From positions 9,550,001 to 9,610,000 of the forward strand of contig CM119371.1 of the NCBI GenBank assembly GCA_051294905.1: a DNA stretch of 60,000 bases, written 5' to 3'. The notes under the pieces were generated by a model that was not told the DNA's origin, ran no database searches, and saw only the letters and a list, made by a program, of their open reading frames with translations. Of this stretch, positions 4,493 through 41,417 are shown piece by piece; within the stretch, counting starts at the first letter, position 1, and each line of letters begins with the position of its first letter. This DNA comes from Botryllus schlosseri (taxonomy: Eukaryota). The position numbers were made by a program, and so were the translations under genes.

Positions 4493-5757
4493 CAGGGCCG
4501 TAACAGCACTTCGTCAGCCCCCCTCAAAACGTTGGTCTTGGGTCCCCCATATGATGATAAACCGAACTTCTGGTGGGGCTCCGCCCCCCCCAGACCTCCC
4601 CCATGCTATCCGCAGTTGAACGCTACTTATCAACTTCATTAAGGAGGTTCATTGAGGAGTTTTCTCGCCTAAACGCGCCAAGCGCGAAAAATTTCTATAA
4701 TTCATGATTGAATCGGTCAATATGATCGGGAATTGCATATACATTGCGATCAACTTTTATCCTGTCTCTGCTTACGTAATCAGATGTGCAGGTAGAGCTG
4801 AGTGACGGGTGTTTCTGTTTGAAAAGGTAGGGCCCTCAATAATAATTAACATCTTCGGGCGTATACCCGTTGGCAGGAACGAAACAGCACTTCGTCAGGC
4901 CTCCCCAAAAAACTTTGTTCTTGGGCTGCCATATGATGATAAACCTACCCCCAATCACGTTGTTCGTTTTTGCTATGAAATTAGTTGTACTGTTCAGTGA
5001 GCCAGCGCCAGGCGCGAAAATTTTCGATAATTCATGATAAAATCGGTCGATAAGATCGGGAATTGCATATATATTGCTATCGATTACTTGTCCTCTCTGC
5101 TCACGTAATCAGATTTACTGGTAGAGCTGAGTGAGGTGTCTTGGAAATGTAGGGCCCGTTGGTATGACTCCGTAACATGATGTTATTTCGTGACCACCTG
5201 TCTGCTATACCAAAAGATATAGAATCGCCCAAACGTAGGCTATACTAAACTAAAAGACGCACACGATTTAAAATTTGCATTTCTTCACTGGCATATAATT
5301 TTTCACTGCGGGATGGTATTTTCTTGTGAGGTTCAGATTGCCAAGACAGAAACATTCGGCGCCAGTCATTTAGGCGCCTTCGGACAATTAAACCTATATG
5401 TATTTTGTATATGTAACGAAGTTTTCGGTCAGCATAAGGGCAGTCCTTTCCGGCCAAGGCTTTCTCGCTGCCGAGTCGCATGTTACATGGCCTAAAACTT
5501 TGTCTTGGTGCATCGTGGCGTGGTAATGGTCAACGCCGATATGCCCATTTCTTTAAATCTGGCGTATTTTGAGTACCCAAAAATCAAGATATTCGGCAAT
5601 TTAAAATCGCGCGCTACGCAAAAAAATTTTGAAAAACTTTCATGAATTTTCAAAAAATAGTCTCTAATTTATGCTCATTCACGAAATAATTTTGGGCCCC
5701 CTTCGAGCTCGCCCCCCCCCTAATTGGGGGGTTTGGAGTGCGGCAGTTACGGTCCTG
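4493..5757. mobile_element. hAT-like non-autonomous element
   Basis: TIR CAGGGCCGTAAC / GTTACGGTCCTG; perfect 8-bp TSD gtcacact (4485-4492, 5758-5765); internal duplication (~4503-4808 vs ~4884-5135). Confidence 0.85.
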
Positions 5758-37850: not shown

Positions 37851-38849
37851 GAAAACAAACTGTTTTATCCATTCTTGGAAATTTTGACTTTGACCATAAA
37901 ATTTTGGCGCTTCTTCGATGGCAGTCAGCGATCGAAAAGTGTTCACCATGGTCACCAATGAATGTTTTGCATGAACACGAATAAAAATTTATAAACGTCA
38001 AAATAAATTAGGTTTTTTTTGTGCCTTTGGAGAGACGGATATTAGGGTGGGGGAAAGGGAGATTGGAAGTGGATTAGGGTCAAAGTTGGGGTTAGGTATC
38101 CCAAGATTAGGGCTGAGGGATGTTAGGGAAGGGGGATATTAGGGTTAGGGGAAAGTGGGATTGGAGGTGGGTTGGGGTCCAAGTTGGGGTTAGGATATCC
38201 CAAGATTAGGGCTGGGAGAGTCGGGTATTAGGGTTGGGAGTTACCGAGTTAGCAGGATATTAGGATTGGAGGTGGGTTAGGGTCAAAGTTGGGGTAGGGC
38301 ATCTCAAGATTAGGGTTGGGGAAGGGGGTATGTTAGGGCTGCGGGAGAGGGGATATTAGGGTTGGGGGAAAGGGAGATTGGAGGTGGGTTAAACCCCGGT
38401 TAGGGGTAATCTAACCCCAAATTTTAACCTAAACCCTCTACCCTAATATCCTCCGTCCCGCAACCCTAATATCCCCCTAACCCCAACCCTAAAATTCCTC
38501 TCCCCAACCCTAATATCCCCCCTAACCCAACCCTAATTTTCCCCTCTCACACAACCCTAATATCCCCCCTTAACTAACCCTAATTTCCCCCTCTCACAAC
38601 CCTAATATCCCCCTCCCGCAACCCTGATATCCCCTCCCCCACCCTAATACTACAACCCTTATCTTGGGATACCCAAAACCCAACTTTTACCCTAACCCTC
38701 TCCAAACGCAAAAACAATGTATTTTGACGTTTATAAATTTTTATTCGTGTTCATGTAAAACATACATCGGTGATCACGGTGAACACTTTTCGATCTCTGA
38801 CTGCCATCGAAGAAGTGCCAACATTTTTACATAAACCAGTTTTGTTTTC
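37851..38849. mobile_element. Palindromic element with degenerate TTAGGG/CCCTAA-rich interior
   Basis: 37904-38005 is the reverse complement of 38720-38829; interior G-rich (ATTAGGGTTGGGG) to ~38410, then C-rich (CCCCAACCCTAAT). Confidence 0.8.
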
Positions 38850-38859
38850 AATTCACCTT

Positions 38860-39560
38860 GAACATTCAAGTTAATATCATAACACATTTGAATAAAATAT
38901 TCATATTTATTCCCGAAGCTTTTCGGCTGACCCTCGTCAGGCCGTCAGGGGATATCGTCAGAAGTATTGCGAGAATTCGAATAACTATGTTCAACACAAT
39001 ATGTATCGCTAATTATGACGTCACACAGAAAATATACAAAGTTAGTAAAGCGAGAGAACTGAAGCGTTGGCATGGGGATAGCGAAGCAAAACAAGTTAAT
39101 GCGTGATTTTCAAATGATGCACAAATTCTTTCTGTTGGCATAGACTAGGTTTACTCATAGTGATGATGGTGGTCTCAAGAACAGACAAATGAAATAAATT
39201 GCGACCCTTAGCCAATACAGAGAACATGTCCTCGTGGTAGTTAGCAGTACATGTATGATTTTCTAGTAAATGTTTGCCGATAGAAGAATTTTGAGCCATG
39301 GCCTGGTTATGTTCGAGAACAAGCGGATTGTCATGCTGCGATTTCGAGATATAAGATTTGACAGACGGTGGGATGTGTTCTTTAATACGGTCCTGCAACC
39401 GTTTGGAGGTTCTCCCTACGTACGGACAATCGTAGTGGCACTTGAATTCATAAACGACGTTACTTTGTTGTAAAGCTACTAGAAAATCATACATGTGCTG
39501 GTAACTATCACGAGGACATGTTCTCTATATTGGCTAAGGGTCGCAATTTATTTCATTTCA
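38860..39560 (-). mobile_element. 5'-truncated Penelope-like retroelement: GIY-YIG endonuclease C-terminus plus 3' pseudo-LTR with hammerhead motif
   Basis: ORF 39096-39494: NVVYEFKC..C.YVGRTSKRLQDRIKEH..SSIGKHLLEN..FSVL..LSVLE..I....PSLCQQKE (PLE GIY-YIG pattern); downstream CTGACGA..GAAA..TC core; inverted duplication at the 5' junction. Confidence 0.85.
38911..38952 (-). ncRNA. Minimal type I hammerhead ribozyme motif (PLE-associated)
   Basis: Minus strand UCCC[CUGACGGC]CUGACGA-GGGUCAGCC-GAAA-AGCU-UC-GGGA: conserved core boxes, short stem II, palindromic stem III (AAGCUU), UUC cleavage triplet. An 8-nt duplication separates stem I from the core in this copy. Confidence 0.6.
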
Positions 39561-39737
39561 AGTCTAATTCGTAGGCTAACGGTACATTACGGAACATACT
39601 AACATGAAAACGTACATCAAATTTCCAGAGAAAATTTTCCTAATCGCATAACATATCTTACTAGCTTAGTCAGCAGATATCATTCATCTGTGATACAATC
39701 TGCTATTGTGGTAGCCTGTTAACACTGCAATCATATC

Positions 39738-41417
39738 ATGGAGACTGTGGAAAAAGAAAGAGACGCAAAACTAGCTCCTTACTTACGGCAAGCGCACGCA
39801 ATGTTCCGCAACGGCTTCGAAGACGAGGAGATGAAGAAGATATTTTTGCGGAATACTTTCGAAGAGATATGCTCAAACGAACACAAGTTTTGCTTCGATA
39901 AATCGTTGAGCTTTTGTCTCGAAGAAATGATCAAAGAATCGGACATGGAAACGGTGTTGAAGTTTTTCGATTCTCTCTCCGGAGATTGGGAAGAGATCGC
40001 GCACAGCCCGAGCGGATCGCACGTCTTACAGACTATTTTCGGAAAAATTATTTCCGACATTGAACTTTCGAAAAAGCCGCACGAAAGCGACATTAAGTCT
40101 GAACTTTTGGGAATAATCAAACACTTCGTCACGCTAGTTGAGGGTAACCTCAACGAAATGATGAAAGATCCAAACGGATCCCACGTATTTCGCTCTTTGT
40201 ACCAAACGCTAGCCGGCGTACTGTTGTCAGATTCTCGTAAATCAGATTCGGAACCCGATATTATCCTCGCCAAAGGCAAGGTTCCCAAAAATTTTCTTAA
40301 AATGTTGAAAAAGCTTACGACCAACATCATTGAAGCACCGCGCTTCAACGAGCTTATCGGAAACGCACACGGCAGCGTGTGCATAGCGCTGATGGTCGAA
40401 GTGCTGCACAAGCGAAGTCTTATGAAAACTCAAGGTGTGTTCTGCGAAAAAATGTTGTCCCATTTGAAGGACGACAGCATGATTATCATGATGAAGGACA
40501 AGCACGCGAGCCGTATTTTTGAAAAAATTCTAAAGTTCGGCAACAAAAACACGAAAATAGCGTTAAGAAAAGTGCTTTTTGACGATGAAAAACGTTTTTT
40601 CGAACTGAGCGCACACCCTGTCGCTAATTATGTAGTGCAGCGTATGATATCGTCAGCACACGATTCTGAAGTGTTCAAAGAAGTATTTGACTACGTATGC
40701 CGTGGTTTTGAGGATATTCTCGAGAGCCAAAATTACGGAATCATGCAAAAACTGTGCGAGCAATGCCTCGAATATCCCGACACCCAGAAACAGTTCTACG
40801 ACAAGCTGCTAGAATCGTTTCATTGTACAGACATCGAGAAAAGAACAGCTTTCATCTCCCTGATATCAACACTACGCACTCACGATTCCTACTTCAACAG
40901 CAGCACAGCAAAGATCACATCTGTGGAATACCACGGCTCCGTCTTGCTTCAAACTTTGCTTAAATTCGACAACATAGGTCTGATCGCTAAAAGTATGAGC
41001 CACACTCCTGTTTCTGACATAGTGACGTTGGCTTGCGACGGTAGCGGCAGTCATTTTGTCGAAAGCTACTTGACAACGGACAAGTTGAAGTTCAAAGTAA
41101 AAAAAGAATTTTTGGAGAAAGTCGGAGACGGATGGCTCGCGATCGCTTGTGATAAATACGGCAGTCGGGTCGTTGAGAAGATGTGGGACGCTTCCGACAT
41201 CGCGGTCAAGCGTCTGTTGATTAAGATACTGTTAAAAAACGCCGACGCGATGGCCCAAGATCAGTTCGGCAAGTTCGTGTGTCGAAAGGTGCAAATGAAA
41301 CGCTACCAAACCAGGCCGGAAGAGTGGGAAAGCATACAGAAGGATATTTGTCAGAAGAGGAAGATGTTTGCGGATATTATCCCTAAAACTGACTCCGCGA
41401 AACGGGTTAAACGATGA
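39738..41417 (+). CDS. NOP9: Nucleolar protein 9 (Pumilio/PUF-repeat 18S rRNA maturation factor), 559 aa, single exon
   Basis: Long uninterrupted ORF with PUF-like repeats (GSHVLQT, GSHVFRSL, ASRIFEK, HPVANYVVQR, GSVLLQTLL, GSHFVE, LAIACDKYGSRVVEKMW) and NOP9-like C-terminus (FGKFVCRKV..Y..RPEEW). Confidence 0.88.
   Translation: METVEKERDAKLAPYLRQAHAMFRNGFEDEEMKKIFLRNTFEEICSNEHKFCFDKSLSFCLEEMIKESDMETVLKFFDSLSGDWEEIAHSPSGSHVLQTIFGKIISDIELSKKPHESDIKSELLGIIKHFVTLVEGNLNEMMKDPNGSHVFRSLYQTLAGVLLSDSRKSDSEPDIILAKGKVPKNFLKMLKKLTTNIIEAPRFNELIGNAHGSVCIALMVEVLHKRSLMKTQGVFCEKMLSHLKDDSMIIMMKDKHASRIFEKILKFGNKNTKIALRKVLFDDEKRFFELSAHPVANYVVQRMISSAHDSEVFKEVFDYVCRGFEDILESQNYGIMQKLCEQCLEYPDTQKQFYDKLLESFHCTDIEKRTAFISLISTLRTHDSYFNSSTAKITSVEYHGSVLLQTLLKFDNIGLIAKSMSHTPVSDIVTLACDGSGSHFVESYLTTDKLKFKVKKEFLEKVGDGWLAIACDKYGSRVVEKMWDASDIAVKRLLIKILLKNADAMAQDQFGKFVCRKVQMKRYQTRPEEWESIQKDICQKRKMFADIIPKTDSAKRVKR

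Follow-up and report, generated by a model that had tools for sequence, protein, structure and literature searches.

Lunse et al. are said to have dealt, in 2017, with minimal type I hammerheads of metazoan Penelope-like elements (PLEs), and the pseudoknot (PK) hammerhead ribozyme reportedly goes back to Weinberg et al. in 2015. The published metazoan PLE motifs have an unusually large local hairpin as stem II (6 bp in D. virilis and 7-8 bp in S. mansoni), and most of them carry an unpaired base after A9 (PMC4209133); in Supplementary Fig. S3 of the same paper, all 56 motifs have a local hairpin, of ~4-7 bp in the rows examined. PLE hammerheads are also described as being without tertiary contacts (PMC6155905, PMC7761336, in the accessible portions of these reviews). 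In the PK hammerhead, according to the available sections of the report on its crystal structure (PDB 8YDC; Zhan et al. 2024, PMC11300833), a 6-bp pseudoknot stands in for helix II, its 5' strand being presented by the loop of an additional hairpin (helix IV), and an A-rich linker to stem I forms a triplex. Here we analyse a PLE found in the genome of Botryllus schlosseri (GCA_051294905.1, 495.5 Mb in 219 contigs), in a stretch of 60,000 nucleotides of contig CM119371.1 (positions 9,550,001 to 9,610,000 of the forward strand). This whole stretch is called the window, and positions are counted from its first letter unless a locus is named.

A reading made from the letters of the window alone (the sequence-only reading) had described a PLE with a minimal type I hammerhead, running from UCCC..CUGACGA through GGGA; these letters are present as written on the minus strand at 38908-38962. 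Our analysis makes it highly probable that the window holds a dead, truncated PLE of a family whose hammerhead builds its stem II from the G10.1-C11.1 pair together with a 6-bp pseudoknot, with predicted trimming after C17. The anatomy of the element, its family membership, the covariation of stem I and of the pseudoknot, and the uniqueness of an 8-nt insert in the window copy are all read from sequence.

A hammerhead motif with a covarying pseudoknot

In 36 aligned 3' ends the family motif reads TAT(T)CCC, CTGACGA, G, a variable base, GTCAGC, C, GAAA, AGCT, T, C and GGGAATA. The letters of the core, the stem II strand and stem III are intact in 31 of these copies, and the upstream strand of the pseudoknot in 33. 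The family consensus has both boxes and all pairable stems: CUGANGA, GAAA and UH are kept, stem I can pair and stem III is palindromic. This upholds the earlier assignment of the terminal-repeat motif to the minimal type I hammerheads. Both core boxes were found in the window copy and in all lineages examined, with the first box varying between CUGANGA, UUGANGA and UUGANAA and the 3-8 pair between C3-G8, U3-G8 and U3-A8. Covariation of this core pair from C3-G8 to U3-A8 is known from PLE hammerheads (PMC4209133), and U3-G8 would be its wobble intermediate.

The stems change between lineages around this core. Stem I, read from the lineage sequences, has 4-7 bp per lineage with wholly different letters (for example UAUUCCC/GGGAAUA, UCGCUA/UAGCGA, CAUACU/AGUAUG, UAACUC/GAGUUA and UCACUC/GAGUGG); two-sided changes occur in four of its four inner pairs and 70-81% of cells are paired, percentages that are depressed by the alignment register in six lineages. 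Stem III consists, in the lineages examined, of A...U enclosing AGCU, AUAU, AGUCU or AGUUCU, loops composed of two AAG/CUU-type halves that are able to pair between molecules. Compensating changes between lineages are thus found in stem I, in the core 3-8 pair and in the stem III palindrome. We also built a covariance model without the pseudoknot, and its 45 hits gave 39 distinct rows, decayed copies included. Among these rows, A15.1-U16.1 is paired in 32, the shortfall being partly a register problem with the longer stem III loops, and G10.1-C11.1 is G-C in 37 and G-U in two; in a smaller alignment of 16 sequences this pair is G-C throughout. Position 17 is C or U, i.e., non-G, across lineages.

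The short stem II of 1-2 bp proposed by the sequence-only reading stood as far as G10.1-C11.1 is concerned; its second pair is not conserved, and a 6-bp covarying pseudoknot had been missed. The six bases preceding C11.1 are complementary to a 6-mer that is set apart from stem I, on its 5' side, by two bases, or by five in the L033 lineage. We found eight distinct combinations of compensated 6-mers, namely GCUGAC/GUCAGC (in the window family and one sister family), UCUGAC/GUCAGA, UCCGAC/GUCGGA, ACUAAC/GUUAGU, ACUGAC/GUCAGU, CGUGCC/GGCACG, UGUGCC/GGCACA and ACUGGC/GCCAGU. In the 16-sequence alignment, 96.7% of pseudoknot cells are paired and five of the six pairs show two-sided changes, compared with 28-37% of cells paired when the partners were slid by 1-3 columns. 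The 45 covariance-model hits gave 93.6% of cells paired, again with two-sided changes in five of six pairs, against 27-42% in the slid controls. For the whole structure in the 16 sequences, the observed covariation score was reached by none of 500 shuffles.

Twenty rare census variants were, in addition, scored blind. Most of them turned out to be chance matches or single copies in decay with changes on one side of a pair, and the decayed copies were not counted as tests; L173 and L177 emerged from the same set as new lineages with compensated pairs, as did several G-U-preserving transitions. Two other pairing schemes were considered and rejected. A local 2-bp stem II (10.2-11.2) as a conserved feature is ruled out by the free variation of base 10.2, where all of G, C, U and A occur within lineages as well as between them. 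In the window family the need to pair with GUCAG gives the upstream strand the look of a second CUGACGA box; taking this upstream box as the true core with a long stem II fails, as stem I breaks down (G-G at 1.1-2.1), G10.1-C11.1 cannot form, and no such box stands there in L033, the closest lineage outside. A helix IV, or pairing that would lengthen stem I past the pseudoknot strand, was looked for by eye, and no consistent pairing was seen.

In the layout of the pseudoknot, G10.1 is followed by one free base, the paired strand reaches directly up to C11.1, and the linker to stem I has mostly two bases, G followed by any base. With this spacing, the six pseudoknot pairs would stack on G10.1-C11.1 to form a 7-bp stand-in for stem II, the single free base would cross the deep groove and the two-base linker would bridge to stem I, a stacking geometry that we infer from general pseudoknot geometry. 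The pseudoknot could in this way hold stem II alongside stem I, an arrangement known from the pseudoknot hammerhead whose structure has been solved.

Several observations weigh against this interpretation. The lineages are akin and come mostly from one genome, so the shuffle test overstates their independence; the argument for the pseudoknot therefore rests on the eight different compensated 6-mer pairs. The outlier L054 has only a 5-bp helix in a shifted register, and the abundant L161-type lineage has a terminal U-C mismatch (UGUGCC/GGCACC). Nested folding energies are unremarkable (z -0.7 to -1.3), and in the minimum-energy fold of the family the core CUGAC pairs with GUCAG in a competing non-catalytic hairpin. 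Finally, comparison of the copies with the Rfam families, the hammerhead models among them, gave no match at E <= 10. The classic PLE hammerheads of loci L040 and L105 were likewise missed, which makes the silence of Rfam weak evidence, and the Rfam hammerhead models do not cover the PLE hammerhead class. The sole Rfam hits near the motif are spurious microRNA-like ones, below threshold, to a G/C-rich foldback repeat at 38290-38550.

In an alternative reading, the upstream complement and the stem II region form a non-catalytic hairpin outside the active fold, acting as an off-state or as a recognition stem for a protein or the reverse transcriptase (RT). Covariation speaks for pairing and not for catalytic relevance, the nested minimum-energy fold of L142 is exactly this long hairpin around the core, and a PLE hammerhead was found to need the element protein for its cleavage and to be dispensable for insertion in vitro (PMC11167929, in the available part of that study). 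We nevertheless regard such a hairpin as unlikely: the paired strand spares all core bases as well as G10.1 and C11.1, the helix is topologically compatible with the covarying stem I, and the fixed spacing suits a coaxial replacement of stem II, with the same connectivity as the crystallised PK hammerhead (PMC11300833, in its accessible sections).

The window letters might also be a chance match in an ordinary repeat, a reading that could draw on the absence of Rfam hits and on an insert owing to which the window copy cannot form a canonical junction. Its probability is negligible, and it is already contradicted by the counts. The pattern YTGANRAGN7CGAAA has 11,612 matches in the genome against 192 for the reversed-pattern control, and one match in the window against 0.05 expected (at least one match in 4 of 100 shuffles). 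Together with the covariation, the position of the motifs speaks against chance as well: our own strict descriptor, run on 77 metagenome loci, identified 11 motifs on the strand of the PLE open reading frame (ORF), each of them directly 3' of the ORF, and two on the other strand; with a relaxed descriptor the counts were 27 and 11. In the model and descriptor search that the sequence-only reading had suggested, our descriptor found motifs and the Rfam models gave no hammerhead hit.

The pseudoknot-type hammerhead, as a short form, is present in all relatives of at least 46% identity and in the sister families of the B. schlosseri genome. Relatives with at most 38% protein identity (L040, L062-L064, L077, L105, L106 and others) carry the classic published motif, in which stem II is local and has 4-7 bp, A9 is followed by a bulged base, and stem III is CG, CATG or ACGT; it agrees with the 56 motifs of Supplementary Fig. 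S3 (PMC4209133). In a derived subfamily (L167, at G000:C1:1041658-1041837, and three alike), the stem II position is occupied by GGGAAACCC, which forms a local 3-bp stem with a triloop; there is no upstream complement, U16.1 is lost, and the subfamily looks like an amplified dead variant.

The Penelope-like element and its family

The search of the genome with a 665-nt query returned at least 716 candidate copies, of which 40 were scored and found to be 88-95% identical. Several copies stand in head-to-tail arrays, and locus L031 holds two intact 845-aa ORFs with a period of 2,722 nt. The ORF contains an RT domain (RVT_1, E = 1.3e-9) together with, at its C terminus, a block of GIY-YIG type, Y..C.C..YVGRT...R..EH, which is invariant in 13 relatives; the Pfam GIY-YIG model is weak for this group, matching two of the 13 aligned relatives at E <= 0.01. 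The combination of this RT and GIY-YIG ORF with head-to-tail arrays and with 5'-truncated copies bearing inverted fragments confirms the earlier identification of a PLE. Tandem units, 5' truncation with inverted fragments and a short tail are described as the PLE signature in the consulted part of PMC8557442, and the corresponding marks are present here as tandems giving pseudo-long terminal repeats (pseudo-LTRs), 5'-truncated copies with an inverted fragment and a variable tail past the ribozyme. The ORF keeps the DKG motif and has Cys/His residues in the endonuclease (EN) block, and a CxxC linker is not visible in it; judged by the motifs given in section 11 of PMC8557442, the Penelope/Poseidon type would fit better than Hydra, Neptune or Nematis.

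Of 8,000 candidates that were scored, 1,353 are homologues at E <= 1e-3, the best being 61% identical, on contigs of mostly 2.6-3 kb. Contigs in bacterial metagenome-assembled genome records contain distant relatives (25-40% identity), and a scan of viral contigs yielded no relatives. A search of the genome with a sister ORF as query gave 7,136 candidates, and several sister families have intact frames of 853-876 aa in long tandem arrays. The 11,612 core patterns, the 7,136 ORF candidates and the intact frames suggest recent or ongoing PLE activity in this genome.

In full copies, the element is a 2.7-kb unit consisting of the 845-aa RT and GIY-YIG ORF, a 3' untranslated region (UTR) of ~130 nt, and the minimal type I hammerhead. 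The distance from the cleavage site to the ATG of the next unit is 9 nt in the tandem copy and 10-20 nt in sister families. An ACGTCA box resembling a cAMP response element (CRE), contained in TGACGTCA in the window, is kept in five of five lineages of this genome that were inspected (L142, L154, L155 and L161 among them), ~75-130 nt upstream of the ribozyme core and within a UTR that has otherwise diverged. This CRE-like box may serve as a promoter element of the pseudo-LTR. An AAUAAA overlaps or directly follows the 3' strand of stem I (window 38906-38911; also in L142, L151, L155 and L161) and is missing in L154 and the metagenome lineages. In a metagenome PLE at locus L100 (2958-3054), the ORF is broken by ~225 nt that include two inverted classic minimal hammerheads with a 6-bp local stem II and CG in stem III; the insert is probably a small non-autonomous hammerhead element inside another PLE.

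The window copy

The window PLE is a dead, 5'-truncated insertion of a family that is abundant in the genome and persists there in intact copies. Its similarity to the family begins at 39476 (query position 49) and stops at ~38877, on the minus strand. Adjoining the truncation point is an inverted 82-nt fragment of the same PLE (39477..39558, plus strand), the reverse complement of 39187-39268 with 95% complementarity. The sequence-only reading had placed the motif just 3' of a GIY-YIG ORF. The endonuclease part is indeed present and is adjoined 3' by the hammerhead, which lies downstream of a minus-strand open frame at 39096-39524; what remains of the ORF is a C-terminal fragment, and RT is absent. 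The fragment comprises the last 126 codons (39099..39476, minus strand), 111 of 126 being identical (88%) to residues 720-845 of P0001, an intact 845-aa ORF elsewhere in the genome, and ends at a stop codon at 39096-39098. The Pfam GIY-YIG match to this frame is weak (E = 0.0016, 19.1 bits with a cut-off of 22.6).

The 3' UTR, which forms the pseudo-LTR body, extends over 38963..39095 (minus strand) and includes the TGACGTCA box with its ACGTCA core at 39016-39023. Reading on along the minus strand, the 5' strand of the pseudoknot, TCTGAC (GCTGAC in the family, the first base being mutated from G to U in this copy), occupies 38957..38962 and is separated by two linker bases from the 5' strand of stem I, TATCCC, at 38949..38954. 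Between stem I and C3 lies the private 8-nt duplication CTGACGGC (38941..38948), followed by the core box C3-A9, CTGACGA (38934..38940), and the stem II region GGGTCAGCC (38925..38933). The latter is made up of G10.1 (38933), a linker base that stays free (38932), GTCAGC (38931-38926) as the 3' strand of the pseudoknot, and C11.1 (38925). The GAAA box (38924-38921), AGCT (38920-38917) and TC (38916-38915) then follow within 38915..38924, giving the palindromic stem III, A-AGCT-T, and C17. Cleavage is predicted after C17, at 38915/38914, and the 3' strand of stem I, GGGAATA, is located at 38908..38914. The pseudo-LTR tail (38877..38907) retains at 38902-38904 a remnant of the ATG start codon of the element.

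The 8-nt duplication, to which the sequence-only reading had already pointed as a possible cause of inactivation, is real and private to this copy: it is missing in 35 of 36 aligned family copies, and the exact 28-mer that bears it matches the genome once, in the window itself. The insert sets stem I apart from C3, and in the nested fold of the window copy its GGC pairs with the GCC beside the GAAA box, creating a longer competing hairpin (-16.5 kcal/mol). The duplication is therefore a plausible inactivating lesion and, being private to the window copy, makes this copy probably inactive. The duplication, the mutated first base of the pseudoknot and the lack of RT together argue that the copy is poor at cleavage, and the replacement by Tyr of an endonuclease-block Cys that is invariant in relatives marks it, along with the duplication and the pseudoknot change, as a relic.

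A gene resembling NOP9, with PUF repeats (PF22493, E = 5e-69), lies at 39723-41417 on the plus strand and starts ~165 nt from the inverted arm of the PLE, head to head with it; the PLE relic sits in or near the promoter region of this gene. On the other side, a foldback-like repeat at 37898-38827 has 112-nt terminal inverted repeats (92% complementary) and an interior of arrays of a 22-23-nt G-rich unit, then C-rich units, with TTAGGG/CCCTAA-like words.

Cleavage, function and relation to known hammerheads

Cleavage, the use of dimers, the catalytic role of the pseudoknot and the biological role of the hammerhead are points that we infer, and the genomic copies add to what speaks against the proposed ribozyme. 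To the tandem junction L031:4300-5100 we mapped three raw RNA runs, one of them bulk and two single-cell, and a set of contigs. At this junction the reads show no pile-up of ends at the predicted site, a result that is uninformative on cleavage. They lie, on both strands, over the final ~350 nt of the element, with almost none over the 5' ORF, and many continue into flanking DNA at the element end; from the scant 5' depth and this run into flanking DNA, they come mostly from dispersed truncated copies. A dip in depth over the ribozyme is due to soft-clipped reads of sister subfamilies that differ by indels. Genomic copies run 40-70 nt past the cleavage site, so the RNA templates that were copied must have been uncut at their 3' motif. 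For another PLE, ribozyme mutants had no effect on insertion in vitro, and the hammerhead cleaved only with the element protein present (PMC11167929, as far as the accessible text goes).

Two further features of the reads were noted at the same locus. Positions 4753 and 4923 of L031 are linked on opposite strands by 24 reads in one single-cell run and 22 in the other, and these are transcribed copies with an inverted rearrangement in the 3' region. At L031 ~4621, 25 and 18 RNA reads have a sister sequence with GAGGGGCU instead of GAAA-AGCU, flanked by the same stem II strand and by stem I; this variant is expressed and has no GAAA box.

The fold might be derived from a hammerhead, no longer cut, and be kept for another role, such as template recognition or a translation start 10-20 nt downstream. 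The lack of read ends at the predicted site (in RNA data that do not inform on cleavage) and the DNA copies that extend past this site are consistent with such a loss, several amplified lineages have U3-G8, or C at position 4, and the role of PLE hammerheads is called unknown in the available parts of two reviews (PMC6155905, PMC7761336). We consider a non-cutting fold quite improbable, given that the eleven core positions, A15.1-U16.1 and the non-G at 17 have been kept while the stems changed fully, which would be hard to explain without catalysis; moreover, for other PLE hammerheads cleavage in vitro is documented, albeit at low rates (PMC4209133).

For a hammerhead that cuts, the most likely role would be to trim read-through or multimeric transcripts of the element after C17, just upstream of the ORF. 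As stem III is reduced to A15.1-U16.1 around a (quasi-)palindromic loop, two motifs would have to pair with each other for a stable stem III, following the dimer logic established for palindromic stems III (PMC4209133; also PMC6765202, in its accessible part).

It is possible, though we rate it at somewhat less than an even chance, that a large clade of animal PLEs (with >11,000 motifs here) uses a hybrid hammerhead, in which helix II is a pseudoknot with the 5' tail, helix IV is absent, and dimers depend on the palindromic stem III. If so, not all PLE hammerheads are minimal motifs devoid of tertiary contacts, the stem-loop descriptors in use would miss the pseudoknotted PLE class, and elements with a hammerhead core that defies descriptors (e.g., the Naiads, in the consulted part of PMC8557442) may carry pseudoknotted ribozymes; the pseudoknot hammerhead design would extend to animal retrotransposons. 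PLE hammerheads have low activity in vitro and are described in the reviews as short of the tertiary contacts on which fast hammerheads depend; the pseudoknot offers a possible reason for slow "minimal" constructs, from which the upstream strand has been trimmed off. It also provides a search rule for ribozymes in elements now scored as being without them. The window copy, as a relic, is minor in itself, and the family carries the greater weight. A pseudoknot in PLE hammerheads was not found described in the literature searched, to which Lunse et al. 2017 did not belong, so that priority is open; the main text and supplement of PMC4209133 make no mention of one.

The motif shares with the minimal type I hammerheads of metazoan PLEs (PMC4209133) its place on the sense strand of the pseudo-LTR, 3' of the RT-EN ORF and upstream of the next ORF, the type I topology, and a stem III of A-U and a short palindrome that implies dimers. 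G10.1-C11.1, the U3-A8 variant and thousands of copies per genome are further common features. In contrast to the published PLE hammerheads, stem II has 1 bp, no extra base follows A9, and the hairpin gives way to a 6-bp pseudoknot with the 5' tail. A base-paired tertiary contact that sets stems I and II parallel is also found in the hammerhead of Perreault et al. 2011 (PMC3088659); the example tested there is of type II, with loop I pairing to a 3' tail, whereas here a type I motif pairs its stem II strand with the 5' tail.

The PK hammerhead is alike in the order of its strands (pseudoknot, linker, stem I, core, pseudoknot, GAAA, stem III) and in the 6-bp pseudoknot that acts as helix II with one strand 5' of stem I (PMC11300833, according to its available sections). 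The Rfam model of the PK hammerhead did not match at E <= 10. Unlike the PK hammerhead, the motif described here has no helix IV and only ~2 bases (five in one lineage) between the strand and stem I; it keeps G10.1-C11.1, has a minimal and palindromic stem III, and is hosted by an animal retrotransposon. Altogether, the motif of the window belongs to a well-known kind, and its modest novelty consists in the covarying pseudoknot that replaces stem II and thereby joins two known hammerhead designs.

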